Origin: a virus
IMG/VR virus record: IMGVR_UViG_3300045988_065855
Location: 1 to 45,727 of that record
Strand: one strand, 5' to 3'
DNA length: 45,727 nucleotides
The notes below the pieces were generated by a model that was not told where the DNA came from, did no database searches, and was given only the letters and a program-made list of their open reading frames with translations. Positions 1 to 45,727 of this stretch are shown here, one piece after another (the first letter of the stretch is position 1; each line of letters begins with the position of its first letter). A program made the translations under genes and the position numbers.

Positions 1-99
1 CGAAAACTCGTGTGACCCGGATTACATCCTTAACGGCGTTGAACTCCGGTACGACGATCTCGACCTCGTACCGGATAATTACGGCGAGGAAAGCGAATC
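1..99 (+). repeat. Terminal direct repeat, copy 1 (identical to 45629..45727)
   Basis: Base-by-base comparison: cgaaaactcgtgtgacccgg...ggaaagcgaatc occurs at both ends. Confidence 0.95.
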
Positions 100-122
100 A
101 GTTTAACTAAGGAGGCAATCGC

Positions 123-476
123 ATGGCCAGAAGAAAATATTCATCGGATGCTGAACTCGCCGAGTTCGATGCCGAAATGGATGCGGTATGGAACCGCAAG
201 CCGGTCTATTCCCCGACGCCGGAAACCCTGCCGGAAGGCGTGGTACATTTTGCACCAGCCGCTTTGCCGACCGGCGTGCAGTTCGACCGGCCAACCGGCT
301 GGTTTTACACCAGCTACAACCCCGAGACCCACGAGGGCGAAGGCTGGTTCGGAACTGAAGACCGTCAGAGCTACGACTTCGAGGATGAGCTCCGCGAAGA
401 CGAGTACGGCGACCTTGTCCTCATGAGCCGCAACTGTGGCTATGGGGAGGGCTGCTTCTGGTCGGAATGGCGCTAA
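123..476 (+). CDS. Hypothetical acidic protein (117 aa)
   Basis: ATG preceded by SD AAGGAGG (109-115). Protein-like composition. Member of the +-strand accessory cluster. Confidence 0.75.
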   Translation: MARRKYSSDAELAEFDAEMDAVWNRKPVYSPTPETLPEGVVHFAPAALPTGVQFDRPTGWFYTSYNPETHEGEGWFGTEDRQSYDFEDELREDEYGDLVLMSRNCGYGEGCFWSEWR

Positions 477-500
477 ACACAGCAAGGAGGTAAAATAAAA

Positions 501-767
501 ATGACAAACATCCAGTTCTACAAATTCTGGGGCAAAGCCCTTGAGTACACCGACCGTGACGCATTCGTATCCGACGCCGCCCTCTCGTCCCTCTGGGGCG
601 AGGACGACGCCGACCCCCATGGTGCATGTCCCGGAACTTGGGAAGCTCTGGGACGCAGCGCACACAGGCGTAAAGGCAATCCGCGAACTTACCTGCATGA
701 CGCAGGCCGAGTTCGCCGCCCGTCACCTCGTCCCGCTGCGCACCTTGCAGCGCTGGGAAAAGGGTGA
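501..767 (+). CDS. Hypothetical ORF; only the first ~39 codons look coding, and it may be fused by a frameshift to the downstream HTH frame
   Basis: ATG 501 with SD AAGGAGG. GC3 is high for 501-617, then falls to ~50% while the overlapping +1 frame shows high GC3. A C5 run sits at 614-618. Confidence 0.4.
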   Translation: MTNIQFYKFWGKALEYTDRDAFVSDAALSSLWGEDDADPHGACPGTWEALGRSAHRRKGNPRTYLHDAGRVRRPSPRPAAHLAALGKG

Positions 768-825
768 GTGCCCCGAGCACATCCGCCTGTTTCTTCTCGA
801 GTCAGAAGGGATGTACAAGCGTTGA
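619..825 (+). CDS. XRE/antitoxin-like helix-turn-helix protein (68 aa as a stand-alone ORF)
   Basis: Motif IRELTCMTQAEFAARHLVPLRTLQRWEKGE is a typical HTH_XRE signature. High GC3 in this frame. ATG 619 has only a weak SD. Confidence 0.65.
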   Translation: MVHVPELGKLWDAAHTGVKAIRELTCMTQAEFAARHLVPLRTLQRWEKGECPEHIRLFLLESEGMYKR

Positions 826-839
826 GCCGCAAAGTTGTA

Positions 840-1511
840 ATGCTTCAACGGACATGCGTCGATTGCGGGAAAACCTTCATCGGCACCCCGAGCTCGCAAC
901 GCTGCCCCGCTTGTCGCGCGGTGCGCGAGCAGGAGTACAGAAGGGCGCACAAGGAGAAAAAGGAGCAGGGCACGGTGCGGCGTTTCGGATCCACGGACGT
1001 CTGCCCGATTTGTGGCAAATCATACACGGTCGTAGGAGGGCTGCAAAAATACTGTTCCGCCGACTGCCGACGCAAAGCGAAGGCTTTCCCGATGGTCAAA
1101 AAAACAAGCGTATCCGGGCACGTTATTCCGCCACTCCTACAGCAAGGCGGACCTTTCGAGATTGTCGAACGTTACAGCGGAGATGGGAAAGTTCGTTTCC
1201 GCGCACGCTGCAAGCACTGCGGCCGTGTTATATACCGCGCCGACTCGTTTTTCTACGAACCGACCGTGAAATCCTGCGGCTGTTTGCGTAACGCCCCGCG
1301 TCCCGGCGCACGGGAAGCAGTCCGCGAAGGAGCCGCAAAGATACCGCACACCTGCCCGGTCTGTGGGAAAGCCTTCACTGGAGGGGCGCATTCAAAATAC
1401 TGCCCCGACTGTCGGGATGATGTCCACCGTACTTACGTCAAAAACGCCGCCCGCCGCCGCGCCGGTTGGACCGAAGAAGAAATCGCCCTCGGCCACCGCA
1501 TCAAGAAATAA
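840..1511 (+). CDS. Multi-zinc-ribbon protein (223 aa, four CxxC...CxxC pairs)
   Basis: First ATG of ORF 768..1511 (the track start is GTG). Repeated CxxC pairs: CVDCG..CPAC, CPICG..CSADC, CKHCG..CGC, CPVCG..CPDC. Confidence 0.7.
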   Translation: MLQRTCVDCGKTFIGTPSSQRCPACRAVREQEYRRAHKEKKEQGTVRRFGSTDVCPICGKSYTVVGGLQKYCSADCRRKAKAFPMVKKTSVSGHVIPPLLQQGGPFEIVERYSGDGKVRFRARCKHCGRVIYRADSFFYEPTVKSCGCLRNAPRPGAREAVREGAAKIPHTCPVCGKAFTGGAHSKYCPDCRDDVHRTYVKNAARRRAGWTEEEIALGHRIKK

Positions 1512-1513
1512 AC

Positions 1514-1566
1514 CACAACCCCCACCGCAGACCATCGTTTCCGCGTGTGGGGGCTGTGTCTTTTGG
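1514..1566 (+). terminator. Putative intrinsic terminator of the +-strand accessory cluster
   Basis: CACAACCCCCAC (1514-1525) pairs with GTGGGGGCTGTG (1547-1558) with one mismatch, followed by TCTTTTGG. The loop is large (21 nt). Confidence 0.5.
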
Positions 1567-2125
1567 AAATGTAACCCCCTCGCCGGGCTTGCACCGGCTA
1601 ACGACTGCATGGGGGGAATGTATACCCCTTTCGGGGTATGTGCGCTTTTCGCCGCGCGAACGTCGGGCTTTTACCGATGGTCTCCCAGCTTATTTTCATG
1701 CAGGGCGTGCAAACAGAACACAAAATGCCACAAAATAGTACGAGAGAAGGAGTTTCACCTCGCTTTCGTAATCTTTTTTGATTTTTGCCCTGCACGTATG
1801 CAGCTTTTCGGCTCTCGCGGTCCGTTGGCGTGCATCTCGCCGCCCCCTTGTGGTTAGGGCTGTGCGCCGTCGCTATCCGGCGTGTCACAATGCTATCGGT
1901 TTGGTTTTCCGGCTGACTGGTTACAGCGGGGCGCGACCCCGGCGGCATCGCCTGCAAGCGTACCGCGCCCGCCGAGCTGTTGCAGCAGCCCCGGCAGGAG
2001 TTCGGGAACAGATGCCCGTCTTTCCAGGCTGTCAGAATAGGTGTCGGCGTGCCGTTCCGTAAGCTGCGCCTTGCTCGTCTTTCCGAGCCGTCAGATTATG
2101 GGCAGCCGTTCGGCTGTCTTTTTTT
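1567..2125 (+). ncRNA. Candidate untranslated structured transcript (no credible ORF), bounded by two +-strand terminators
   Basis: No ORF with SD or protein-like composition. Hairpins at 1582-1598, 1622-1639, 1790-1803 and 1927-1941. Ends at the terminator 2101-2125. Confidence 0.3.
2101..2125 (+). terminator. Intrinsic terminator (+ strand)
   Basis: GGCAGCC-gttc-GGCTGTC forms a 7-bp stem with one G.U pair that is valid only on the + strand, followed by T7 (2119-2125). Confidence 0.7.
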
Positions 2126-2442
2126 GTGCTCACTCGCCCTCATGCAGGCTTTGCGAGCATATGCGGCATCTCTGCCGCGTTTCCTTGAACTGTATTCCCG
2201 GAAGTCAAAGGGCCCGCGCGCCCTCGTGCAGACGCGGCGGACAGGCTGAGACGGTTTCCCGCCTCATTCGGGAATGCCTTGGGCGAAAGGAAGTGTGAGC
2301 CCCTCCGGCCTCGTGCAGCCTTTGGAGCGTGTCCCCCGCCGAAGCAGGGGAGAGAATTAGGAGGACATAACCGGAATTTATCAACCCGCGAATGCCGTGG
2401 TTTTGCTCCCTTGGAGCTCTTCCACGATACTATTGTATCACA

Positions 2443-4830: not shown

Positions 4831-4999
4831 CGTTTTCCTCCAGATACTTCCGCATGGTGCTGACCGCAATGCGGCAGGCTTCCTCGCAGGCAGCGGCCAT
4901 CTTCTCTCGACCGTGCAGACCGCCGTAGTATTCGATCGTTGCCAGCTCCTCGGCTGTCGTTTCCGGGTCGAGGATGCGGATTGCCTGGTTAATCGTCAC
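4814..4999 (-). CDS. Hypothetical protein (61 aa)
   Basis: GTG start overlapping the upstream stop (GTGA). Protein-like composition. Confidence 0.5.
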   Translation of the reverse strand: MTINQAIRILDPETTAEELATIEYYGGLHGREKMAAACEEACRIAVSTMRKYLEENDERSM

Positions 5000-5367
5000 A
5001 GTTCTACCCCCTCAATCTCCGCGCGGATTTCCAGATCGTGCAGATACTCGCCCATGTGTCGCTTCTGCTGGCATAGCAGTTCGAGCGAACAGTTCGGCGT
5101 AAAGCCAAGCGTTCCCGCTTCGTACTTCGTCACCATCCGGTGCAGCTTTTCATAGCGTTCCTTGGTCTCGCGGTACTCGCACTGCATGTGCTCCTGCCAT
5201 GTCGGTTCGCTTTTATTCTGGATTACTGACGCTTCACGCACCATTGCTGCTTCAATTAAATGTGCATTCATAGCGCAATACTCCTTCAATTCTTTGCTTT
5301 TCATTGGATAACCAAACCCGTATCTTGCAACCATGCGTGAAAAATGCAACATTTCTTCCAAATTCAT
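4996..5367 (-). CDS. Hypothetical phage protein (123 aa)
   Basis: ATGA overlap with the upstream gene. The C-terminal YEAGTLGFTPNCSLELLCQQKRHMGEYLHDLEIRA motif recurs in uncharacterised phage proteins (from memory, unverified). Confidence 0.6.
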   Translation of the reverse strand: MNLEEMLHFSRMVARYGFGYPMKSKELKEYCAMNAHLIEAAMVREASVIQNKSEPTWQEHMQCEYRETKERYEKLHRMVTKYEAGTLGFTPNCSLELLCQQKRHMGEYLHDLEIRAEIEGVEL

Positions 5368-13401: not shown

Positions 13402-13632
13402 TGCCGTTGCTAAGCTGTTCAGTGCTTCACTCCGCTTTGCCGTTGCTGTGCACATCTGCGCTGTGCCATGCCATCGCTCGGCTGTTCACTGTCTTGCTCT
13501 GCCGTTGCGTGTCTATGCCCTGCATTGCCTTGCAATGCTACGCCCTTGCTATGCTGCGCTTTGCCATGGCTATGCTGTGCACGTCCAAGCTATGCCCTTG
13601 CTCTGCTGCGCATTGCCTTGCCCTTGCGCGGC
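13402..13632. repeat. Array A of phased TGC (+) / GCA (-) triplets, period mostly 5 nt
   Basis: About 30 TGC triplets in ~230 nt, for example TGCCC TGCAT TGCCT TGCAA TGCTA at 13516-13540. The + strand is nearly A-free. Confidence 0.85.
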
Positions 13633-13772
13633 TAATCTCGTTTTGGCAGTACGCCGATTTTCTTAGCGCTTGCGTTCGGCTTCCTGCCGATCTTTTTCGA
13701 GTAAAGCGCCTCGCCGATCGTGCGTTTCTGCATCTCGCGGATTACGTTCCGCCGTTTTATTCCGTCGGTCAT
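13632..13772 (-). CDS. Small basic hypothetical protein (46 aa)
   Basis: Not in the track. ATG 13772 with a GAAAGGGG SD-like element. Product: MTDGIKRRNVIREMQKRTIGEALYSKKIGRKPNASAKKIGVLPKRD. Confidence 0.35.
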   Translation of the reverse strand: MTDGIKRRNVIREMQKRTIGEALYSKKIGRKPNASAKKIGVLPKRD

Positions 13773-13854
13773 TGCGTATCGCCCCTTTCCGCGCCCTCAG
13801 ACGGCGCGTGTCGCGTTTTCGCACCCCTCGGCATGTAATTTCATGCCTGAGTGC

Positions 13855-14016
13855 TTAGTGTCGCTCACAGCGCATCTGAGCGGCTTTCAGCAAAAGCGTC
13901 TTGCGCTTGTTCAGCTCGTCCTTGAGAACGCGGTGGTAGAATCCCCACCCGAACAGCAGCACGAGCTGCGCGAAAATGCAGGCGAGTACGCCGAAAAGTA
14001 CGGGGTTTATAATCAT
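13855..14016 (-). CDS. Small single-pass membrane protein (53 aa)
   Basis: Not in the track. ATG 14016 with SD AGGAGG at 7-nt spacing. TM helix MIINPVLFGVLACIFAQLVLLFGWGFY followed by a basic tail. Confidence 0.6.
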   Translation of the reverse strand: MIINPVLFGVLACIFAQLVLLFGWGFYHRVLKDELNKRKTLLLKAAQMRCERH

Positions 14017-14043
14017 GCTTTTTCCTCCTGTCGTGGTTTTCTT

Positions 14044-14071
14044 ACTAACCCGAACGGTAGTGAGGGTTAGT
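14044..14071. repeat. Perfect 8-bp inverted repeat ACTAACCC / GGGTTAGT with a 12-nt spacer
   Basis: Read directly at 14044-14051 and 14064-14071. Adjacent to the AT-rich block. Confidence 0.8.
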
Positions 14072-14090
14072 TCTTTCTTCTTGCTTTGTT

Positions 14091-14168
14091 AGAAATTAAA
14101 TTAATATATATTCGACCGTAGGGAGAATATATATATACTTCTTTTCTTTCTTTGGTACTTTCTTTCTT
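14091..14168. other. AT-rich block with a (TA)n run and CTTT repeats; candidate DNA unwinding element
   Basis: agaaattaaattaatatatattcg...gaatatatatatacttcttttctttctttggtactttctttctt stands out in a GC-rich genome. Confidence 0.5.
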
Positions 14169-14234
14169 ACGCCTCGGTTTGCCCTTGGACTGCCCTCGGT
14201 TTGCCCTTGGACTGCCCTCGGTTTGCCCTCAGAC
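14169..14234. repeat. Three tandem 22-bp repeats; TGCCC boxes phased every 11 bp (iteron-like)
   Basis: ACGCCTCGGTTTGCCCTTGGAC / TGCCCTCGGTTTGCCCTTGGAC / TGCCCTCGGTTTGCCCTCAGAC. TGCCC at 14180, 14191, 14202, 14213 and 14224. Confidence 0.85.
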
Positions 14235-14469: not shown

Positions 14470-14605
14470 TGCCCTCCTTTCGGTGTGCCCTTGCGCGGCA
14501 TTTCAACGCCTGTCTACGCTTTGCAATTCCGTTGCGTGTCTACGCTGTGCTATGCCGTTGCCGTGCTGCGCTCCGCAGAGCAATTCCATGCAATGCCCTT
14601 GCTGC
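14470..14605. repeat. Array B of phased TGC (+) / GCA (-) triplets
   Basis: 14 TGC triplets in ~136 nt. Shares the 14-mers TGCCCTTGCGCGGC (14486) and CCGTTGCGTGTCTA (14529) with array A. Confidence 0.8.
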
Positions 14606-17085: not shown

Positions 17086-17778
17086 ATGAAAAAAAGATTG
17101 GTAGCCGCAGCGGCGATGATGGCTGTCTTTGTTACAAGTACAGCCGCCGCCACCGCTTATAAAAGGTCGATTACCGCCGAATACGGAATTAAAGTGGAGA
17201 TTGACGGTCAGCAGACTGTTTTGACAGACGCAAACGGAAAGACCGTTGAACCATTCACCTATAACGGTACGACTTATGTTCCCATTCGTGCCGTTGCCGA
17301 AAACCTCGGTTGTTACGTCGGCTATGATGCAAGCACGCAGACCGCCATTGTCGATAACGATGCAATGGAAGCTGTCACAGTTGCACACAAAATCACAGTT
17401 GCGAGTGACGCGCTGATGATGGACATTGAACTCCTTTATTCCAAGTGTGATATGTATAGTGGTGGTTATGTTACCGCTCAGGACGCATCGTCGTCGATTG
17501 CAAACCTGTCGAGCAATATCGAAGGGAATTTTAATTACGCAAGCGCCGCATACATAGAAGCGCAGGACAATGAAAACACATATCTTGGAGAGTTAAAAGC
17601 CGCTTATACGAAGTTTCAGAAAGAATATGCCATTGCGGTTGACGCCGTATCGAGTGCAAAAAACTATGTGTCGACCAGAAACTCCCAGTACATCATAGAA
17701 GTAAACGAAGCTATGAGAACTTTTTCTTACTCGTCTGCAAGCATGGCGAATAAATTCATTGACGATATGTGGGCATAA
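17086..17778 (+). CDS. Secreted protein with a copper-amine-oxidase-N-like (stalk) domain (230 aa); lysogeny-module moron
   Basis: Signal peptide MKKRLVAAAAMMAVFVTSTAAATA. GTTYVPIRAVAENLG motif. SD AAGGAGG. Confidence 0.7.
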   Translation: MKKRLVAAAAMMAVFVTSTAAATAYKRSITAEYGIKVEIDGQQTVLTDANGKTVEPFTYNGTTYVPIRAVAENLGCYVGYDASTQTAIVDNDAMEAVTVAHKITVASDALMMDIELLYSKCDMYSGGYVTAQDASSSIANLSSNIEGNFNYASAAYIEAQDNENTYLGELKAAYTKFQKEYAIAVDAVSSAKNYVSTRNSQYIIEVNEAMRTFSYSSASMANKFIDDMWA

Positions 17779-17785
17779 ATAAAGC

Positions 17786-17824
17786 AAAAAAACCGCCCAC
17801 CGGAGGGCAATCCGGCAGGCGGTT
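17786..17824 (-). terminator. Hairpin with a T-run on the - strand (insulates int antisense read-through)
   Basis: AACCGCC...GGCGGTT outer stem with CCGG/CCGG inner stem. The A7 run on the + strand reads as T7 after the stem on the - strand. Confidence 0.5.
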
Positions 17825-17825
17825 C

Positions 17826-17866
17826 GAGGGTAGTACATTTGAGGAACGTTACTACCCTCTTATTAT
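17826..17866 (+). terminator. Hairpin and T-rich tail after the secreted-protein gene
   Basis: Perfect 10-bp stem GAGGGTAGTA / TACTACCCTC (17826-35 / 17850-59) followed by TTATTATA. Confidence 0.45.
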
Positions 17867-17891
17867 ACGACAAAATAGGAGGTTTTGCAAC

Positions 17892-18977
17892 ATGAAAAAA
17901 GCGAACACATCCGACGGATATTTCCGCGAGACGTTCACGTATCAGGGTAAGCGTTATTCTGTCCGCGCCAAGACAGAACGCGAACTCTGGCGGAAAGTTG
18001 ACGAGAAAAAACGCCGTCTTGAAGAAGGTGTAGACGTGGTGAACGAGAACACGAGAGCCGAAAAGTGGTTCACGGACTACATCGAGACTTACAAAAAGCC
18101 GAAGGTGCAGCCGACCACCTATTCCGACCTGTGCGGTTATATCAAGAACTACATCGCGCCGGAGATTGGTTCCATGCGGCTGAAAGAGGTTCGCGCCGTG
18201 CACTTGCAGCGCATTATGAACAGCGTTGCAGGCCGTTCCGCGTCCATGGCGTGCAAGCTGCGCGATCTTATCAAAGGCGCGTTCCGGCAGGCGCGTATTG
18301 ACCGTGTAATCGTTTACGACCCCTCAGAGGCACTGGTTATGCCGGAGACCAAAAACGGCACGCACAGGGCGATTACAGCCGAAGAGCGCCAGCATATTCT
18401 GCACGTTGCCGAGACGCACCGCGCCGGTCTCTGGGTGCTGTTCATGCTGTACACCGGTGCACGCCCGGACGAGACCAGGAAAGCGACATGGGACGATGTT
18501 CGCCGGAACGAACAAAAGATCATCCTGCACTCATCAAAGACGGATTTCGGTGACAGAGCCGTTCCCCTGCATCCGGCGCTTGCTCCTCTGCTGACCGGCG
18601 GCAAAGGTTACATCTTCACGCAGCCGACCACCGGCAAGCCGCACACAAAGCATTCCATGCGCCGCATGTGGGAGAGTTTCAAACGCGCCGTAGACATCGA
18701 CATGGGAGCACGCACTTTCAAAGGCGGTGTTATCCCGGAGACTTCAAAGGTAGCCGTGGACCTCACGCCCTACTGCTTGCGTCACACCTACGCAACCGAC
18801 CTGCAAACGGCAGGCGTGCCGATCAACGTTGCAAAGGACCTGCTGGGGCACAAGGAGATTTCGATGACAGCGCGTGTTTACACCCACCTGTCTGAGGAGG
18901 CGTTCGCCGCAGCGGTAGACAAGGTGGTTGCGCTGGACACCGCACGTCGCAGCGGAAAGATAGCCCAAATCAGGTGA
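17892..18977 (+). CDS. int: Tyrosine recombinase / phage integrase (361 aa)
   Basis: ATG 17892 with SD AGGAGG. C-terminal LRHTYATDLQTAGVPINVAKDLLGHKEISMTARVYTHL carries the H-x-x-R ... H ... Y catalytic pattern. Confidence 0.9.
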   Translation: MKKANTSDGYFRETFTYQGKRYSVRAKTERELWRKVDEKKRRLEEGVDVVNENTRAEKWFTDYIETYKKPKVQPTTYSDLCGYIKNYIAPEIGSMRLKEVRAVHLQRIMNSVAGRSASMACKLRDLIKGAFRQARIDRVIVYDPSEALVMPETKNGTHRAITAEERQHILHVAETHRAGLWVLFMLYTGARPDETRKATWDDVRRNEQKIILHSSKTDFGDRAVPLHPALAPLLTGGKGYIFTQPTTGKPHTKHSMRRMWESFKRAVDIDMGARTFKGGVIPETSKVAVDLTPYCLRHTYATDLQTAGVPINVAKDLLGHKEISMTARVYTHLSEEAFAAAVDKVVALDTARRSGKIAQIR

Positions 18978-18993
18978 CACAGTAGGTGACACA
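18972..18993 (+). repeat. Two direct AGGTGACACA repeats (candidate integrase arm-type sites, P arm)
   Basis: Identical 10-mers at 18972-18981 and 18984-18993, overlapping the int stop codon. Confidence 0.6.
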
Positions 18994-19131
18994 TCTAACA
19001 CCCCCAAAAACCCCTAAAAAACCGCATTCCGGCGAATAAAGTCGAAATCAGCAAAACCGAGTATCGGAACATTCACAGCCGGAATAAAAGAAAAAGTCCC
19101 ACAAACAAAGCTGTTTACGGAACTTTTCGTC

Positions 19132-19180
19132 TGGTCCGAGTGACAGGATTCGAACCTGCGGCATCCTGCTCCCAAAGCAG
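19132..19180 (-). other. attP core candidate: 3' ~49 nt of a tRNA-Pro(UGG) (anticodon arm, variable loop, T arm, acceptor 3' strand, CCA)
   Basis: The - strand reads CTGC-TTTGGGA-GCAGG-ATGCC-GCAGG-TTCGAAT-CCTGT-CACTCGG-A-CCA. There is no D arm upstream. It lies 155 nt from the int stop. Confidence 0.7.
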
Positions 19181-19233
19181 CAGCACATTCCTCAAAAGTC
19201 ACCGTATATCTAACGATTTTGGCACTCGGATTT

Positions 19234-19265
19234 ACAAGTGGCACACCAAGTGACACATCACTTGT
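19234..19265 (+). repeat. AAGTGGCACAC / AAGTGACACA direct repeats inside a 7-bp inverted repeat (candidate P' arm sites)
   Basis: GTG(A/G)CACA boxes at 19238 and 19250 in the same orientation as the P-arm pair. ACAAGTG (19234-40) pairs with CACTTGT (19259-65). Confidence 0.5.
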
Positions 19266-19372
19266 AAATTGCATTTTCCCGCATTTATTTGCCGTCATTA
19301 TACCACAAGGCACATATAATGACAGCCATTACTACTCTATACAAAAATGCTTTTACATATAGAACATGAGAA

Positions 19373-19396
19373 AAGGGAGGGCAAACGCCCTCCCTT
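19373..19396 (-). terminator. Intrinsic terminator ending the late/post-lysis operon
   Basis: Perfect 10-bp stem AAGGGAGGGC / GCCCTCCCTT with a 4-nt loop, followed by TTTCTC on the - strand, 4 nt after the stop of the 2203-aa gene. Confidence 0.75.
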
Positions 19397-19399
19397 CTC

Positions 19400-22300
19400 T
19401 TATCCGCCGTATCCCGGAATAACCGTTCTCGGGTCAATGCTCTGTCCGTTTTTATGCACTCTCAAATGCAGATGCGGACCGGAGCTGTTGCCAGTCGAGC
19501 CGATGACGCCGACCTGCTGACCGGCACTGATCGTGTCTCCCTGCTTAACCGTAGCCTTCTGCAAGTGGCCGTACAGCGAGGTGTAGCCGTTGCCGTGATC
19601 TACTACAACATAGTTGCCGTAGCCGTTCTCATCGTAGCCGACCTCAGTAACCTTGCCGCCGCCGATACTGTCCGCCGCCTGTCCGTTCACACTGCCGCCG
19701 ATGTCGATACCGTCGTGCTGTTTGCTTCCCTTGCCCTTGTTCGTCGTAGGTGCAGTTCTGCTGCCGTAGCCGCTCGTGATAACCGCGTCGGAAACCTTCG
19801 TCGGGTTGCTGAAACCAGTTGCGCGATTGACGGAAATGCCGGTATCGCCCTTCTTGTCCTCCGGCAGCTTGCCGCCGCCGCTATAAAGGTTTTCGAACTT
19901 CTTTCTTCCGAGAGCACTCATGATTGCCGCGAACTGTTCATAGTTATCGACATTCTGAGAAACGATTTTCGCCTGTGCTTCCTTCTTCGCATTGCTTTTG
20001 CCTGCTTCGTAATCTACGCCGCTTTTCAGCGCGTTTGCAAGCATTTTAATCTGCATATACTGAGTAGCAGATATGCCGGAGCTTTCCACAGCGCCGATGG
20101 TATCTTTTTCGGTTGCGCTTCCATCGGTTCGTATCATATCAAACGTGTACTTCTCAGGCTTTGCTCGGTTCATCGAGTAGAAACCGAAGCTGTCTTCAAG
20201 CGCTGCGCGTTTTTCAGCCGAATATCCCTTCATATCGAGCCATTGAGAGAACTCGGTTGCCTCCATGGTCGCTTTATCGCTCCCCTTCTCATCAGCTAAT
20301 GTATCGTCAGCAACGCCCTTGATATACTGCGACTGGATCATCGCATCAACATACTCTTCCGCTGTTACCTTATCACTGATTTCGGTGTAATTTTCCCAGC
20401 GGCTATCCGAAACACCCTTGATAAGCAGCGTGTGATACAGGCTGTTCTTCTCCTGCTCAGAAAGCGACTTGTCGCCCTTGATGGAGTTGAACGTCTGGTC
20501 TCGCGCTTCCCAGCTTTCCATACTGTCGTTATAGCTGTCCTCCATCTCCTTGTAGGCGTAGTAAAGACCCGGCTCGATGCCGCTGTCCTTGACGGTCTGG
20601 ATCGTGCCCTCAAGCTCCTTGCCATACGTCTTGTTCGCCGCGACTGCCTTTGCGTACTTGTACACATCGGATACCGCCTCGATCTTCTCGTCGTTGGTCA
20701 TGCCCTTGTACGCCTCGGATTTGGTCAGCTTGCCGAGCGCATCCAGTGCAATCTTGCCGCCCTCGCTTGTCAGCGCGGAATACTCCTGCGCAGTGAGGAA
20801 CTTCTTCGTGCCTTTCTCAGTCTTGTAATACTTCTGCGGCTTGCTTGGCAATACAGAGCTGTCGCCGGTTGCCTGATACAGCTCCTTGAGCGCCTTTTCG
20901 GTCTGCGTGCTCTTTGCGTCTGCCAGATATCCCGGCGAAAAGAAGTTGTACGCCGCGCGTGCGAACACGTTGTCCGGCCCGTTCTTCTGTTCTCTGCCCC
21001 ATACATCCGTATATGCAGGCTGATACTGCGACAGTCCCGGGATTTTGTTCGCCTGCCGCTGTAAGAACTTCTGCACGCTCGACGGAACAGGACTGTTCTT
21101 GTCCGCATAGGTGGTTCTGCGCGTGTTGTCCACCGTCCGCGCAATCTGACCGAACAGCGTCGGCACGAACTGACCGCCAAAGTTGGTTGCAACGTTGCTT
21201 GCAATGCCAAACAGCGGATTGCTCTTGTTGTATGCCGCGCTCGTAACCGTCGAGCCAATGCCGGACAGCATCGTCATGTTGAGCATCGGGTCGAACATAC
21301 GGCTGACCGTTGCCATTGCCTGATTGAATGCCGTCTCGTCGTCGTCGTACTTCTGGTGCAGTGCTTCATACAGTTCGCCGCCCATCGCAAGCGGCACAAC
21401 AGCCGGAGACGCCCAGTCGATGGTATACGACTTGCCGCCGATGTTGATTGCATACTCCTGCTGACCCATGCCCGCGTCAAGGTTTGCTTCCTTGTCGTCG
21501 TCGCTCGAGCCTGCCGAGAAAACGCCCTGTGCTGCAAGGAACGCGCCGAGCGCTGCAATGCCCGAGCCGGTAAGACCCTGTCCGATGTGGTCGATCATCT
21601 TGGTCGCGTCCATGTTGCCCTTCTTGACCTGCACCGCGTCATAGGTGATTGCTTTCAGCAGACCTACCGGCGACAGCTCAAACGAGCGCTTTGCAACGTT
21701 GATTGGCGTGCGCTTGAACGGCACAAGTGAGCCGATAGCAACGCCCCAACCTTTGTTTCTCTTTTCAAGTTGGCCGAGCGTGTCTGCCAATGCTGACGCA
21801 TCCTGAAACGTTGCAATCTTCGCGTCCTGAATCGCGTGCTGCCGCGCCTCGTTCAGCTGCGCTTCCGTCAGATTGTTCACGTCCCAGCCGCGTGCCGTCA
21901 GGAAGTTGCCCATGCTCTTGATGTAAGATCCCTTTTTGAACCAGCTATCTTCCACATCAAGTGCCCGGGTGTTCTTGTCCATCACCTTTTGCAGCGGCTT
22001 CGGGAACAGCTTCTGCCGCTGCTTAATTTCGCTCATTTCGGTTTTGTAGGCATTGCCGCTGAGTTCCGCCTCGACGTTTGCATAGTCCGCCTTTGCAAAC
22101 TCGTGTGCCGCCTTGTTCGTATGCAGCGCACGGGTCCGCTGACCCTGCGGCAAAAACTTCTGACCGGCCGCGGAAACCTTGTGGCTTGCGTCAAGAGCGA
22201 TAGCAGAGGCAACGTTACCCATGAAGTTGCGCACATGCGTGCGCGGATTGCCGAGCATCGCAAAATAGCGCCATGCGTTCACTATGTCTCCTGCTGTCTT

Positions 22301-32654: not shown

Positions 32655-34526
32655 TTAAATGTCGGCGGAAATAAAGGCGTATCCGCCAGTTGTATTATCA
32701 GACCTCTGTAAATAGCCATACCAATCTTGTGATGTAGCACTACTAAAAGTTACAAGCACGGACGCTTTAGTTGTGCCAACGTCAAGAATCGATATGTTTG
32801 ATATACCGAAAGCAGTTGTGTTTCCAGACATGGAGCGGACAATAACTCGATAGTTACTCACATCGTTAAAGCGAATTGACGGATATGTACGTTTTCTTTC
32901 GTATGGCAGAACAAATGTTGCGCTCGTAGCACCAGCTGGAATAAATGTAGCATTCGTAATAACAGGCGTATTTCCATCTTCTATTTTTTCTGCATAGTAC
33001 ATACATCTCCTCAACTGATCCCCGAAATCCGGGATTTCGTTCAATACCCAAACGCCGTTCTCCTTGTGCGCAAGGGTCTGCGTGTCGCCAAGTTCGAGCT
33101 TGGCGGCTTTGATAGAAAAACTTCCGGAACCTGTATTAAGCGACTGAATAACGATCTGATTTGCATCAATAGATGCGTCAGCAGGAATAGTACCTGTTAT
33201 TTCAGCGAGCGCCCAATCATCAGAAATCGGTGCTTGTTCGTTGAAAAAGTATTTACCAGCGCCCCATGAACAAACAAGGCGAATAGGGAGCCCAGTGGCT
33301 TTGTAAAGGCACGACAATGTGTAAATTGCACCCGGAATAAGGACATTATCCAGAAACGTGATCAAATTCCAACCCGCCACAGTGTAGGAAATGTTAAGTG
33401 CGCCGCCTTGAAGAGTTGCCACGACACCATCTGTAATTCTCCACCTATCCACCGTATACCCAACCGCCGTATACTCCGTCTGCCCTCTCTGGTTCACCGG
33501 TCTGCCGAAGTACCAGTTGTCGAGAAGATTCGGGTTTGTGCGGTATTTGAGGGCATCCGCTGCAAGCGCGAATCCATTCATCTGTGCAAGCGCCGCGTTA
33601 AATTGTGTTTCCGTGCCCTGATAGCCGCCGTCGAGCGCCGCTTCATACGCATCTTTGCCGTCGTTGCCAGGCACGCCCTGAATGCCCTGCACGCCCTGAA
33701 TGCCCTGCGGACCGGTGGGGCCCTGAATGCCCTGCACGCCCTGCGGACCCACTGGACCTTCAACCTTGCCGACGCTCACCCAGTCAAGCGCGTTTTCACT
33801 CCAGATGTAGCACTCGCGGTTCTCCTCGACCTGATACATCTTGTCGTTGCCGTTCGGGATAGCGTTTCGCAGTGCGGCGAGGGTGCTGTAAACGTCCTCG
33901 ATGTATAACGCCTTGCCGTCCTTGCCGTCTGCGCCCTTTTCGCCCTGTGCGCCCTGCGGACCCTGTGCGCCCTGTGCGCCGCGAATGCCCTGTGCGCCCT
34001 GCTCACCCTGAATGCCCTGCGGACCTCTCGGACCAATCTCGCCCTGCGGACCGCGTTCACCTCTGAGGCCCTGCTCACCTCTTTCGCCCTGGTCTCCCTT
34101 GTCGCCCTTGTTGCCCTGCGGACCGCGAACGCCGTGAACGACGGTTACGCCGTTTACGTCCTCAACTGAGCCCTCGGCAAACTGCATCCTGCTCCTCTGC
34201 GGCAGCACATTGCCGCCTGCGTCGAGGATAACGTGACCCGAACTTGCCGTTGCAAGCCATGTCGAGCCGTCAAGGCTGTATTCGATTGCCCCGTCGCTGT
34301 TGAGCCGCAGCCAGACGAGTGAGCCGTCATTGCACTTGATGCTGATCTCGTCGTTCGCGCTCAGTTCGTTTACAACGTCGATGGTCTCGTTGAGCTTGTC
34401 TCTCAGCAGCCGCGGCAGCTTGTCGAACACCGCCTTGTTTTCCGCAGCCGTGCCAGTCAGCGTGTCCGCCGCAGAAACAACGCCTGTCGAGCTTACCGCG
34501 CTGTCTGAAATCTTTTCGATTGCCAT
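32655..34526 (-). CDS. Tail fibre / receptor-binding protein with collagen-like Gly-X-Y repeats (623 aa)
   Basis: Two G-X-Y tracts ([19 protein letters not shown]...GADGKDGK and [22 protein letters not shown]...). The C-terminal ~250 codons are AT-rich. Confidence 0.8.
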
Positions 34527-43963: not shown

Positions 43964-43998
43964 GGTATCACCTCCCTGTTATAGTGTACCACAGCCGC

Positions 43999-44089
43999 TA
44001 TCATTGCTCAATTATACAATTCCACCAAATATCATTACTCAATTATGTTCACTTTGCCTATTGTTTATCATTGCTCAATGATATATACT
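43999..44089. promoter_or_regulatory. Three 17-bp palindromic operators plus a promoter for the +-strand accessory cluster
   Basis: TATCATT(G/A)CTCAAT(T/G)AT at 43999, 44030 and 44066. The third (ATCATTG-ct-CAATGAT) fills the 17-nt spacer between TTGTTT (44061-66) and TATACT (44084-89). Confidence 0.65.
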
Positions 44090-44137
44090 GTAATCACAAC
44101 AAAGGAAAACACAAAAAACAATTTGGAGGTACACACC

Positions 44138-44335
44138 AGGACTGACATTCTCACTACTCTCGACAACCGCTTCTGCGGTAAGTACACTAACTGCATCGGC
44201 TGCCCGCTCTATGACGCCTGCTGCCTCTGCAGATGCATTCCGGCCGACGCTTGGAGGAAGCCGGACGAAGAGATCGAACAGCTCTTCCGGAAAGGTCTCA
44301 CGGAAGCCCTCGCCGCTTACGACGCACAGCACTAA
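44138..44335 (+). CDS. Cys-rich small protein (~65 aa) with an uncertain start (AGG where ATG is expected)
   Basis: SD GGAGGT plus a spacer identical to the next gene, but the codon at 44138 is AGG. The in-frame ATGs at 44045 and 44078 lie inside the promoter/operator. CxxC-rich: CGKYTNCIGCPLYDACCLCRC. Confidence 0.4.
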   Translation, partial: RTDILTTLDNRFCGKYTNCIGCPLYDACCLCRCIPADAWRKPDEEIEQLFRKGLTEALAAYDAQH

Positions 44336-45578: not shown

Positions 45579-45727
45579 ATGACCCTCGACGAAGCCCTCG
45601 ACCTCGTAGGTGCAGAGCCCCTCGAAGTCGAAAACTCGTGTGACCCGGATTACATCCTTAACGGCGTTGAACTCCGGTACGACGATCTCGACCTCGTACC
45701 GGATAATTACGGCGAGGAAAGCGAATC
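45579..45727 (+). CDS. Small hypothetical protein (51 aa) spanning the circular junction; continues to the stop at 104..106
   Basis: ATG 45579 overlaps the TGA of a 5-codon mini-ORF (45565..45582, SD GAGGAGGG upstream). The frame is continuous through the repeat to TAA 104-106. Product: MTLDEALDLVGAEPLEVENSCDPDYILNGVELRYDDLDLVPDNYGEESESV. Confidence 0.45.
   Translation, partial: MTLDEALDLVGAEPLEVENSCDPDYILNGVELRYDDLDLVPDNYGEESE
45629..45727 (+). repeat. Terminal direct repeat, copy 2 (identical to 1..99)
   Basis: Same 99-nt string as the window start. It lies inside a small ORF, consistent with an assembly overlap of a circular molecule. Confidence 0.95.

Follow-up and report, generated by a model that had tools for sequence, protein, structure and literature searches.

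Why a tightly packed phage genome should keep about 0.9 kb without a recognisable gene is the question raised by positions 1512-2442 of the virus record IMGVR_UViG_3300045988_065855, which was analysed here over its whole length of 45,727 nucleotides (the window). Large structured phage RNAs such as ROOL and GOLLD are, to our knowledge, some of the most poorly understood of all RNAs, with only a few classes described. The original prediction, made from the letters of the window, was that the interval encodes a large structured non-coding RNA of this kind. The core of this idea was upheld by homologues in more than 80 contigs, compensatory changes in stems, a promoter and terminator pair and strand-specific folding, while the strand, the extent and the ROOL/GOLLD assignment had to be revised. 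The interval is very probably, on the evidence of its sequence and that of its homologues, a structured RNA gene of the minus strand.

Coding capacity and genomic setting

The window represents a temperate phage of the human gut, with genes for an integrase, CI and Cro, and its likely hosts belong to the Subdoligranulum/Oscillospiraceae group. No credible ORF is present in the interval, as had been stated: all frames were checked with and without stop-codon recoding, and recoding itself was rejected, all three stop types occurring in every frame. The longest ORFs have no protein-family match, no relative examined carries an intact ORF at this position, and indels of 1 and 2 nt separate close relatives, so that neither the conserved ORF nor the indels in multiples of three characteristic of a protein gene or pseudogene were found.

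The interval is not the only long non-coding stretch of the genome, other ORF-poor stretches lying at 13456-14228 and 18978-19400 (attP). It does adjoin the plus-strand gene cluster, but instead of being simply downstream of that cluster it lies between convergent transcription units. The late regulator gene adjoining it encodes a product that resembles sigma-70 region 4 (PHROG 36), not Q or N. The small terminase gene terS (43702-43322, Terminase_2 type) is located 3.4 kb away around the circle, across an inverted operon, and has its own promoter TGTGGTACACT at 43993-43983. No toxin or nuclease gene was found among the annotated neighbours, and a search for repeats over the whole genome revealed neither another copy of the interval nor a repeat array (retroelement template/variable pair or CRISPR-like).

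Homologues of the interval, with lengths between about 290 nt and about 1.1 kb, are present on more than 80 contigs of related gut phages, and in every case they immediately follow the same regulator gene. The carriers include 23 close IMG/VR relatives, 22 tier-2 relatives, the genomes L037, L231 and L024, and about 20 human-gut metagenome contigs. Blastn with the whole interval gave no match in GenBank phages, and D1, one of the modules described below, has no significant match there outside the family.

Strand and boundaries of the predicted transcript

A plus-strand unit of about 540 nt (1566-2125) had been proposed originally, but no promoter was found for it, and the structured strand is the minus one. 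Folding z-scores are -4.3 and -3.6 for the minus strand versus -0.7 and -1.55 for the plus strand, and for the modules D1 and D2, the UUCG hairpin and the terminator the minus reading is favoured over the plus reading by 5-9 kcal/mol.

The minus-strand RNA is predicted to start at about 2426-2424 and to extend for about 0.92 kb, from about 2426 to about 1510. Transcription would begin at a host-type promoter, TGTGATACAAT, predicted from sequence and devoid of a -35 element, with additional read-through from the late-regulator gene, and would end at the two-way terminator 1558-1514. The pattern TGTGNTAYAVT occurs three times in the window, always on the minus strand, versus 0.21 expected occurrences. 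Of 31 distinct homologous contexts, with regulator identities as low as 41%, 21 have a TGnTAnnnT element at the stop of the regulator gene; in tier 2 the element is about 50 nt further on.

Both terminators of the original prediction were retained. The 1514-1558 hairpin is stable in the minus (-34.6 kcal/mol, z -6.1) and the plus reading (-25.6 kcal/mol, z -4.6), U-rich tails can be read in both directions (GGUUUAUUUCUU on the minus strand), and terminators occupy the equivalent place in tier 1, tier 2 and L024. The second element, at 2100-2125, was rated good on the plus strand by a terminator scan (T7 tail); it is kept in tier 1, L037 and L231 and is absent from more distant homologues, including tier 2. 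On the plus strand, the terminators at 1514-1566 and 2100-2125 may also serve to stop the convergent accessory operon.

Modular structure of the RNA

The minus-strand RNA contains three D1 modules with the loop GCAYGA, two copies of D2 (a 24-base motif of the form UCUGAC-R-stem-GAAAGA-stem-A), two hairpins with T-loop-like loops of 7 nt, and GNRA and UUCG hairpins (Table 1). The D1 units are 84 and 87 nt apart and the D2 units 59 nt apart. Hairpins listed earlier at 1582-1598, 1622-1639, 2163-2178 and 2333-2350 were recovered, the last of them with a UUCG tetraloop on the minus strand only, and the box GTCAGA(A/T)TA noticed at 2030-2040 and 2090-2101 proved to be real and is the reverse complement of the D2 5' flank. 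The stem of D2 copy 2 forms on the minus strand only because it includes a U.G pair. The helix near the 3' end, together with H4, has the geometry of a tRNA minihelix (7+5 bp).

Table 1. Predicted features of the interval and its minus-strand RNA, in the order of transcription
Feature	Position	Strand	Remarks
Promoter TGTGATACAAT	2442-2432	minus	-16 TGTG element and -10 TACAAT, directly after the regulator TAA stop
5'-terminal nested hairpin CGUGG..(GCUCC-AAG-GGAGC)..CCACG	2396-2426	minus	-13.5 kcal/mol, z -4.26
Hairpin CCCCUGC-UUCG-GCGGGGG	2333-2350	minus	-13.1 kcal/mol minus vs -8.2 plus
D1 copy a: outer stem, AAA bulge, GGCU-[GCACGA]-GGCC	2299-2328	minus	-13.6 minus vs -7.5 plus
Small hairpin CCCG-AAUGAGG-CGGG	2258-2272	minus	D1-like AUGAGG loop; read from sequence
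D1 copy b, loop GCACGA	2212-2242	minus	-19.1 minus vs -11.9 plus
Hairpin GCGGC-AGAGAU-GCCGC	2163-2178	minus	in minimum-energy fold
D1 copy c, loop GCAUGA	2128-2158	minus	D1 copy best kept in distant relatives
Dual-use element, plus reading	2100-2125	plus	intrinsic terminator, 8-pair stem including G.U pairs, T7
Dual-use element, minus reading	2100-2125	minus	A7 run, then hairpin CAGCC-GAAC-GGCUG ahead of D2 copy 1
D2 copy 1, UCUGACG-GCUCG-GAAAGA-CGAGC-A	2072-2095	minus	
Hairpin GGCGC..GCGCC	2046-2070	minus	ahead of D2 copy 2; in computed fold
D2 copy 2, UCUGACA-GCCUG-GAAAGA-CGGGC-A	2013-2036	minus	-8.8 kcal/mol minus vs -3.0 plus
D3 hairpin GGGCUG-CUGCAA-CAGCUC	1974-1991	minus	loop invariant
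Central region	1700-1973	minus	partly conserved; 1857-1700 variable or replaced
3' domain	1575-1690	minus	holds Ha, H1, H2, H3, enclosing helix and H4
Ha	1678-1687	minus	GNRA loop
H1	1663-1677	minus	loop UAAAAGC
H2	1642-1657	minus	
H3	1622-1639	minus	GAAA loop
Helix CCCCC../..GGGGG	1575-1616	minus	encloses 12-nt linker and H4
H4, GCCGG-UGCAAGC-CCGGC	1582-1598	minus	likened by eye to the tRNA T-arm hairpin
Two-way intrinsic terminator	1503-1558 (hairpin 1514-1558)	both	ends the minus-strand RNA and, on the plus strand, the accessory operon

Conservation and covariation

In tier 2, patches of the RNA are 75-93% identical versus 64-72% for the DNA of the regulator gene; the patch of D1 copy c reaches 88-91% and the segment 2039-1857 has 72-75% identity. 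Copy numbers vary from one to four for D1 and from none to three for D2 among the relatives, and differ even between near-identical phages; the L024 version of the RNA comprises 290 nt.

Loops of D1, D2, D3 and the two hairpins with T-loop-like loops are invariant while their stems co-vary. The D3 stem, for example, is GGGCUG/CAGCUC in the window, AAGCUG/CGGCUU in L042 and GGACUG/CAGUUC in L055, and the 5' hairpin of L042 keeps its architecture with other bases, GUGAU..(GCUC-GUAA-GAGC)..AUCAC; in L241 the 5' start is ACGUGGAAGAG. A comparison of the homologous intervals gave covariation above that of shuffles in D1, D2 and H4, in agreement with the idea of a structured RNA. In D1, 94.9% of the cells are paired versus 85.4% when shuffled (score 0.349 versus 0.198; 0 of 500 shuffles as high), and in D2 96.3% versus 67.8% (0.762 versus 0.174), with four of the five pairs changed on both sides, shuffle statistics that overstate independence because the D1 and D2 test sets were partly chosen by eye; the covariation is drawn from about four clades. 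D1 is closed by a U.G pair in every one of its 26 variants, and the D2 pair that the search pattern had left free is canonical in all 54 distinct contexts, with four pair types. H4, represented by 11 stem variants, is 100% paired versus 71.3% in shuffles (covariation 0.69 versus 0.17), and compensatory changes between clades were seen in Ha, H1, H3 and the enclosing helix. These tests used per-module alignments in place of MAFFT columns; when the column pairs of the MAFFT alignment were searched for helices without bias, no long-range helices or overall fold could be established, because MAFFT mis-registers stems with indels.

Such a pattern is hardly that of a decayed pseudogene, or of a mere spacer and terminator region without a function of its own. 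Although the interval does lie between convergent units and supplies terminators for both, its patches are better conserved across the tiers than the neighbouring gene, the loops are invariant, stems are compensated, and the homologous phages examined carry no intact protein-coding gene at this place, so that this explanation, which was considered at the outset, appears extremely improbable.

An element acting as DNA was also envisaged originally, in the form of a cos/pac site, to which a replication origin or protein-binding repeats (D1 boxes for an HTH regulator or the terminase) may be added. Three CCTCRTGCAG boxes are spaced by 84 and 87 bp, about eight helical turns, the gene of a DNA-binding regulator adjoins the interval, and in relatives an 11-bp tandem repeat lies beside it. 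Nevertheless, the stems that flank the boxes co-vary and depend on G.U pairs possible on one strand only, neither of which is needed by sites in duplex DNA; the G.U-dependent stems point to selection on the RNA and not on the duplex. We take Terminase_2 to be a pac-type family, with sites usually in or beside terS, which is 3.4 kb distant here and beyond the inverted operon, and D2 is found in sense orientation in the tRNA arrays of unrelated phages. A role at the DNA level is considered very unlikely, and a cos/pac site in particular is disfavoured.

Comparison with known RNA families

No model match supports membership of the ROOL (RF03087) or GOLLD (RF01998) class, which had been regarded as plausible. 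At gathering score, the whole window yielded no match in Rfam 15 to ROOL, GOLLD, riboswitches or ribozymes; for either strand of 1300-2700, neither ROOL nor GOLLD was among the matches listed with E values of up to 10, and the homologues in L042, L024, L037 and L231 gave no Rfam match, these two models included, at gathering score or within that listing. The interval RNA shares with ROOL and GOLLD a phage or prophage origin, a length of several hundred nucleotides, a dense structure, no associated protein and an uncertain function. The ROOL model, of about 580 nt, has six multistem junctions as well as three pseudoknots, and GOLLD has a universally conserved 3' half; in contrast to such a fixed multi-junction fold, module copy number varies here and total length can be anything between about 290 and about 1100 nt. 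Assembly into homo-oligomeric cages is a further characteristic of ROOL and GOLLD as a kind. Both classes are sited where phages keep their tRNA islands (PMC12286853, PMC5737381). The siting is similar in this temperate phage: its relatives L115 and L063, with a regulator identity of 41-45%, carry tRNA genes in the slot between the regulator and the packaging genes. The string GGAAAGAC was not found in the parts covered of the supplement to the cryo-EM paper on ROOL and GOLLD, among them the ROOL env-120 sequence and ROOL alignments.

Smaller classes were considered as well. Twister-sister (RF02681) scored 17.3 bits (E=1.6), below the gathering threshold of 34; positions 31-47 of this model coincide exactly with the minus-strand hairpin GCCGGUGCAAGCCCGGC (1598-1582), but only these 17 nt match and the rest of the ribozyme core, a three- or four-way junction, is absent. 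The string CCCCGCUGUAAC (1931-1920) looks like a B12 box by eye. A cobalamin riboswitch was rejected, as RF00174 and its variants gave no model match, and a pattern scan of genomes returned mostly chance matches in high-G+C genomes and no cobalamin model match. A tRNA or tmRNA was recognised neither by ARAGORN nor by Rfam, the only resemblance being the acceptor/T-arm-like helix of 7+5 bp. A type III toxin-antitoxin RNA of the ToxI kind was likewise discarded: Tandem Repeats Finder detected no array, there is no adjacent toxin gene, and the repeats of the interval are 70-80% identical in their cores only.

CsrB/RsmZ sponges and the pseudo-ToxI of phage PhiTE are long RNAs with repeated hairpins, invariant loops, variable stems and varying copy number. 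The interval RNA resembles CsrB/RsmZ in its repeated hairpins with an invariant loop and in a copy number that varies between close relatives, but its loops are GCAYGA and GAAAGA and not the ANGGA bound by CsrA, and unlike pseudo-ToxI it has no identical tandem repeats and no adjacent toxin gene. Most likely, the RNA belongs to no catalogued family.

Proposed role of the RNA

The RNA lies in what can be termed an "untranslated-RNA slot", with the late regulator on one side and the packaging genes on the other. In L115 the order is regulator, promoter, D2, tRNA-like element, tRNA-Lys, terS and terL; in L063 it is regulator, promoter, D2, tRNA, terminator, inverted module and terS; in the distant L236, L233 and L234 a short hairpin or terminator is all that lies between the promoter and HNH/terS. 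The RNA consists of hairpin modules in variable copy number, the invariant loops of which may be recognition surfaces, and, because these loops are repeated, it might serve during phage growth as a trans-acting scaffold or decoy that binds a conserved partner of the cell in a multivalent manner. This partner could be tRNA itself, or a factor that is associated with tRNA, with the ribosome or with RNA polymerase. The full statement, a structured minus-strand RNA of about 0.92 kb acting in trans as a scaffold or decoy, is modestly favoured, while the scaffold or decoy mechanism taken by itself is proposed tentatively.

A different role, in cis, is suggested by phage lambda, in which the late leader has the layout Q-pR'-6S RNA-tR' and nut sites consist of boxA and boxB. 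Here, too, a promoter directly follows a late regulator gene and precedes a terminated untranslated transcript, and D2, a conserved single-stranded box with a 5-bp G+C hairpin and a purine-rich G...A loop, is reminiscent of boxA-boxB, its hairpin being boxB-like by analogy. The interval might accordingly be a leader or attenuator of late transcription: the promoter beside the regulator stop would be the late promoter, the structured RNA its terminated leader, and the regulator or an RNA element such as D2 would permit read-through to terS. The pairing of regulator and promoter is kept down to about 41% identity, the D2-containing leader of L115 runs straight into terS and terL, only a short hairpin or terminator separates the promoter from late genes (HNH/terS) in L236, L233 and L234, and a variable module number suits a cis-acting leader as well as an array of sites. 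On the other hand, the RNA of the window, of every tier-1 and tier-2 relative, of L024 and of L063 ends at a strong terminator facing genes of the opposite strand, so that read-through in the window would be antisense for 2.7 kb, and terS is provided with a promoter. The multi-module structure of 0.9 kb far exceeds what an attenuator needs; in contrast to lambda 6S RNA, the transcript is five times longer and faces convergent genes. Nut sites are phage-specific, whereas D2 is conserved across phyla and is present in phages without such a regulator in the flanks examined. A cis-acting leader is therefore considered unlikely.

The modules might also be the functional products themselves, if the transcript were cut into D1 and D2 units, whether by RNase P acting on the tRNA-like 3' helix or by other RNases, and these units then countered a host defence or toxin in the way that pseudo-ToxI repeats counter ToxN. 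This would agree with the spacing of D1 (84-87 nt) and D2 (59 nt), with copy numbers that differ between near-identical phages, with the minihelix geometry of the 3' helix and H4 (7+5 bp) and with the occurrence of D2 as a separate unit of about 60 nt between tRNAs, from which RNase P and RNase Z would release it. The repeats, however, are not identical tandem units and their spacers differ, no cognate toxin or nuclease gene is nearby, and neither ARAGORN nor Rfam calls a tRNA in the interval, which makes an array of small RNAs or decoys quite improbable. A scaffold or decoy acting in trans is the preferred reading.

Occurrence of D2 in unrelated phages

D2 recurs in unrelated phages of Vibrio, Stenotrophomonas, Iodobacter and Bacillus and in many gut contigs. 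It is often situated 5-7 nt upstream of tRNA genes, has the sense orientation in tRNA arrays, and can also form a separate unit of about 60 nt with tRNAs on either side. When 14 unrelated D2 loci were compared with Rfam, the matches listed (E up to 10) were confined to tRNAs and, next to D2 in L047, a single DUF805b, and the k-mers shared among D2-bearing non-coding regions of unrelated phages were restricted to D2 and the tRNA T-loop string GGTTCGA. Nothing else being shared, there is no evidence for a single super-family fold.

Theta ribozymes, which are minimal HDV-like ribozymes, are small conserved gut-phage elements found beside tRNA genes and also alone in long non-coding regions (PMC10879173). 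They are located 3' of tRNAs, while D2 is located 5' of them, and their fixed core, P3-U-CC-NCGU-P3'...GG...C(U/C)AA, has features that D2 does not possess. Nor were the elements that define HDV-like ribozymes recognised (nested double pseudoknot, L3 U-CC-NCGU, GG as P1.1 partner, catalytic C in J4/2 and cleavage at the tRNA 3' end). HDV models did not match the interval or the D2 loci, and GGAAAGAC was not found in the published tables of theta ribozyme sequences; with these differences in core features, D2 was rejected as a theta or HDV-like ribozyme. A promoter was excluded as well, as the spacing would place the transcript start inside the downstream tRNA.

D2 was also compared by eye with the hammerhead core, K-turn, box C/D, CsrA site and RNase P CR-I, and no match was seen. 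String searches of the literature for the D2 sequence retrieved nothing relevant. By eye, the 9-mer CGGAAAGAC matches positions 2055-2063 of 23S rRNA, a match that chance alone could give.

A broader proposal, which we regard as speculative and rather doubtful in its entirety, is that D2 is a pan-phage module marking untranslated transcripts and that the window RNA founds a new class of modular phage RNAs. D2, in the form UCUGAC-R-GCNNG-GAAAGA-CNNGC-A, would then mark tRNA arrays and large RNAs in phages from Vibrio, Stenotrophomonas and Iodobacter to Bacillus and Clostridia. It would act through a universal partner, by showing a codon-like triplet (G-AAA-GA, and G-CAY-GA in D1) to the tRNA anticodon loop; alternatively, it would recruit a tRNA-processing factor, or would render RNA polymerase resistant to termination on untranslated RNA. 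The window RNA, with two D2, three D1 and the T-loop hairpins, would represent a class that occupies the tRNA-island slot and binds tRNAs or tRNA-associated machinery.

The locus adds an uncatalogued RNA family from abundant temperate phages of the human gut. The family is tractable: its predicted promoter and terminator are defined, its members form a natural size series (about 290 to about 1100 nt), and its modules are discrete, with invariant loops open to mutation one by one. D2 ties it to the tRNA arrays of unrelated phages across bacterial phyla, a link that points to a shared, so far unrecognised step in the expression or use of untranslated RNAs by phages, and should tRNA or a defence nuclease turn out to be bound by the loops, the RNA would be relevant to the ways in which phages withstand attacks of the host on tRNA. 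Finally, a scan of the genome collection with CGGGGTNGCNCCCYGCNGTRA produced mostly chance matches in high-G+C genomes and one true homologue, in a Subdoligranulum variabile MAG.

Genome organisation around the interval

Bases 1-99 of the window recur exactly at 45629-45727, a 99-nt terminal repeat that is an assembly overlap; the window is thus one full phage genome, circular and 45,628 bp long, in which the accessory operon on the plus strand spans the origin. The phage is temperate, encoding an integrase (17769-18977), a CI-like repressor, a Cro-like protein and an antirepressor, with attP at about 19190-19140 carrying a tRNA 3' half. This half (GCAGGTTCGAATCCTGTCACTCGGACCA) is part of an attP-like region (19140-19310, minus strand) adjoining the integrase gene. 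The minus strand holds most genes; since the early operon lies on it and the accessory operon on the plus strand, the interval 1512-2442 sits between convergent units. The true N-terminus of the late regulator is probably MTAKEWL.

Features of the phage genome, of the predicted RNA and of D2-carrying cultured phages
Feature	Position	Strand	Remark
Late operon	down to 19400	minus	Arc-like gene, then terS, terL etc.
terS	43702-43322	minus	Terminase_2
Early operon		minus	Cro down to late regulator
Late regulator	2952-2443	minus	PHROG 36 match; resembles sigma-70 region 4
Accessory operon	~44147 across origin to 1511	plus	
5' hairpin	2426-2396	minus	
UUCG hairpin	2350-2333	minus	
Three D1 hairpins	2328-2299, 2242-2212, 2158-2128	minus	
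A7 run and hairpin	2125-2101	minus	
Two D2 motifs	2095-2072, 2036-2013	minus	
D3	1991-1974	minus	loop CUGCAA
3' domain	1690-1575	minus	
Vibrio phage 1.285.O (L122)	1125-2240		carries D2
Iodobacter phage PhiPLPE (L125)	1-811		carries D2
Bacillus phage 055SW001 (L123)	915-1773		carries D2
Stenotrophomonas phage Piffle (L124)	663-1260		carries D2

An A+T-rich divergent control region (43964-44120) with three ATCATTGCTCAAT-like boxes separates the accessory operon from an Arc-like ribbon-helix-helix gene (43963-43784), which is followed by a terminator and then terS; the predicted promoter on the Arc/terS side is TGTGGTACACT at 43993-43983. The plus-strand ORF 44123-44335 encodes a Cys-rich 62-aa protein and has a ribosome-binding sequence (TTTGGAGGTACACACC) identical to that of the next gene; none of ATG, GTG and TTG occurs where a start codon would be expected, and ATT at 44147 is in frame. 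Collagen-like 9-nt periodic repeats (GCCCTG...) were found at 33666-34146 within a 623-aa minus-strand ORF (32655-34526), probably a tail fibre.

Coding status

No frame of 1512-2442 is open, recoding of any single stop type opens none, and the longest ORFs gave no protein-family match. Among the 23 close IMG/VR relatives (tier 1), indels of 1 and 2 nt occur inside 2177-2442. The interval is non-coding, in agreement with the original prediction, which saw no credible ORF here, and a pseudogene is an unlikely explanation. It is not, however, the only long non-coding stretch, as had been stated, since 13456-14228 (and 14570-14603), which separates the Cro/CI switch from the early genes, is also ORF-poor. 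Repeats found there, four imperfect ones of 34 nt and others of 28 nt, could be iterons or operators.

Strand, putative promoter and terminators

Against shuffled sequence, the folding z-score of 2100-2445 was -4.3 on the minus strand versus -0.7 on the plus strand, and that of 1512-2130 was -3.6 versus -1.55. Single modules fold 5-9 kcal/mol more stably on the minus strand because G.U pairs are used. Directly past the regulator stop codon begins TGTGATACAAT (2442-2432), promoter-like in carrying a TGTG element and a -10 box. The genome has three motifs of this class, all on the minus strand, versus 0.21 expected, and of 31 distinct homologous contexts 21 show an equivalent promoter-like element at the stop codon of the regulator. 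The third member, TGTGGTATAAT (19307-19297), lies within the attP-like region, just upstream of the tRNA half. The predicted RNA 5' end folds as a nested hairpin, an architecture retained with other bases in tier 2 (22 more distant contigs). At the 3' end of the unit, a hairpin of -34.6 kcal/mol is followed by a U-rich tail, and terminators are found at the equivalent position in every tier; that at 1514-1566 is predicted to work in both directions.

By its sequence, 2100-2125 is a good plus-strand terminator, and a terminator scan confirmed the earlier remark that the G.U pairs lengthening its stem are valid on the plus strand only. It is absent in tier 2, and its proposed role as the end of a plus-strand RNA was not borne out; we read it as a putative back-up terminator of the accessory operon that lies inside the RNA gene. 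Thus, of the large structured non-coding RNA originally proposed, the structured, conserved non-coding unit stands, while the strand, which is minus, and the plus-strand unit were wrong. Its promoter-like and terminator elements are likewise conserved, and the product is very probably a structured minus-strand RNA.

Hairpin modules and covariation

Each D1 hairpin has GNCU-[GCAYGA]-GGNC at its tip, set off by an AAA/GA internal loop from an outer stem of 5-6 bp. D2 is a UCUGAC flank with a GAAAGA-looped stem. The D1 and D2 loops (2013-2328) share the format G-NNN-GA (G-CAY-GA and G-AAA-GA), the Y being the sole variable loop base among 26 D1 variants; such loops could adopt a GNRA-like fold in which two bases are flipped out, or could display a codon-like triplet. 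Between D3 and the 3' domain the centre of the RNA is partly variable. The 3' domain contains a GNRA hairpin, a GAAA hairpin and two hairpins whose 7-nt loops, UAAAAGC and UGCAAGC, resemble T-loops; a 5-7-bp helix encloses a 12-nt linker and the second of these two, resulting in tRNA acceptor/T-arm geometry. A weak DUF805b-like hairpin (1818-1803, minus strand, 12.5 bits) has a loop, GGAAGCCGAAAA, resembling those of D2 and H2.

In test sets covering about four clades and partly assembled by eye, paired cells made up 94.9% for D1 (26 variants; shuffled mean 85.4%; covariation score 0.349 vs 0.198 for shuffles), 96.3% for D2 (16 variants; 67.8%; 0.762 vs 0.174) and 100% for hairpin H4 at 1582-1598 (11 variants; 71.3%; 0.691 vs 0.172). 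For D1, none of 500 shuffles scored as high, slid controls reached at most 60%, and the U.G closing pair was present in 26/26 variants. Both sides had changed in four of the five D2 stem pairs and three of the five H4 pairs, and a D2 pair left free by the search pattern was canonical in 54/54 distinct contexts, with four pair types. D3 and the remaining 3' hairpins show compensatory changes between clades. The hairpins are thus modular and under structural selection, the support being module by module; a DNA-level role of the interval is unlikely.

Relatives and known RNA families

With the regulator protein as query, 25 IMG/VR loci were retrieved. Identity across all close relatives is ~94% over 1991-2442 and ~80% over 1618-1691, while the plus-strand genes beyond the interval are replaced by others. 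Motif and metagenome scans added the tier-2 contigs, the loci L037 and L231 and ~20 human-gut contigs. In tier 2, RNA patches are 75-93% identical versus only 64-72% for regulator DNA; one copy was found in a MAG labelled Subdoligranulum variabile. In locus L024, where regulator identity is 41%, a miniature of the RNA comes after the regulator; its 290 nt comprise a single D1 hairpin, one H3-like and one T-loop-like hairpin, and a terminator. An 11-nt tandem repeat, CTAAGCAACAT, absent from the window, lies just past the RNA terminator in L005, L011, L017, L018, L021, L023 and others, in 1 to ~6 copies, the number differing among near-identical phages. A GP20-b cis-regulatory RNA (RF03003, 57.6 bits) occurs at L037 1357-1417; none was detected in the window.

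Rfam 15 gave no match to the RNA at gathering score, nor any to its homologues, and the two matches listed up to E=10 were trivial hairpin matches. In one of the two, a T-loop hairpin equals 17 twister-sister positions exactly (17.3 bits; threshold 34). The RNA is therefore not a ROOL, GOLLD, riboswitch or known ribozyme, although membership of the first two had been considered plausible. Its likeness to ROOL and GOLLD is limited to the general kind, all being phage-encoded, large, protein-free and found in tRNA-island context (PMC12286853, PMC5737381).

The D2 module in other phages

While D1 is specific to this RNA and its relatives, the D2 pattern TCTGACNGCNNGGAAAGACGNGC matched 94 IMG/VR stretches (about one expected by chance, as an estimate), ~53 of them in unrelated contigs of 30% to 62% G+C. 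GenBank phages with D2 infect Vibrio (60 records), Stenotrophomonas, Erwinia, Iodobacter and Bacillus. Its orientation is nearly always that of the flanking genes. In four phage arrays (L032, L048, L090, L100) ARAGORN puts a tRNA 5-7 nt downstream of D2. Rfam tRNA matches and inspection show D2 upstream of a tRNA in L059, L074 and L115 too, and L063 and L104 look alike; other copies occur within terminator-ended ORF-free regions of ~0.8-1.4 kb. The D2-bearing regions have nothing in common beyond D2 except tRNA T-loops, so D2 is an independent module. A theta/HDV-like ribozyme was rejected for D2, and its string was not found in the searched portion of the ROOL/GOLLD cryo-EM paper's supplementary material.

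The four cultured phages tabulated, from other phyla, carry D2 in such ORF-free regions or in tRNA arrays, none annotated as RNA; that of L122, the one run against Rfam, matched no family. In the Vibrio and Iodobacter phages, a 17-18-bp long-range helix directly follows D2, with a tRNA or canonical T-arm downstream. In the unrelated contig L047, a DUF805b RNA (RF02914, 37.3 bits; 4988-5020, minus strand) is directly downstream of D2.

Possible role and genomic position

The interval is probably an RNA gene whose invariant loops would serve as recognition surfaces. As a multivalent scaffold or decoy, the RNA might act in trans on a conserved partner, a mechanism that we propose tentatively and with some doubt. 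The chief alternative is a late leader or attenuator that acts in cis, with the layout of lambda pR'-6S-tR'. The distant relatives agree with it, but not the genomes in which convergent genes oppose the RNA and terS has a predicted promoter to itself. L115 has, all pointing the same way, a 41%-identical regulator, the same promoter type, D2, a tRNA-like element, tRNA-Lys, terS and terL; L063 has regulator, promoter, D2, tRNA and terminator, then an inverted module and terS. The window RNA occupies the position where these two loci keep their tRNAs.
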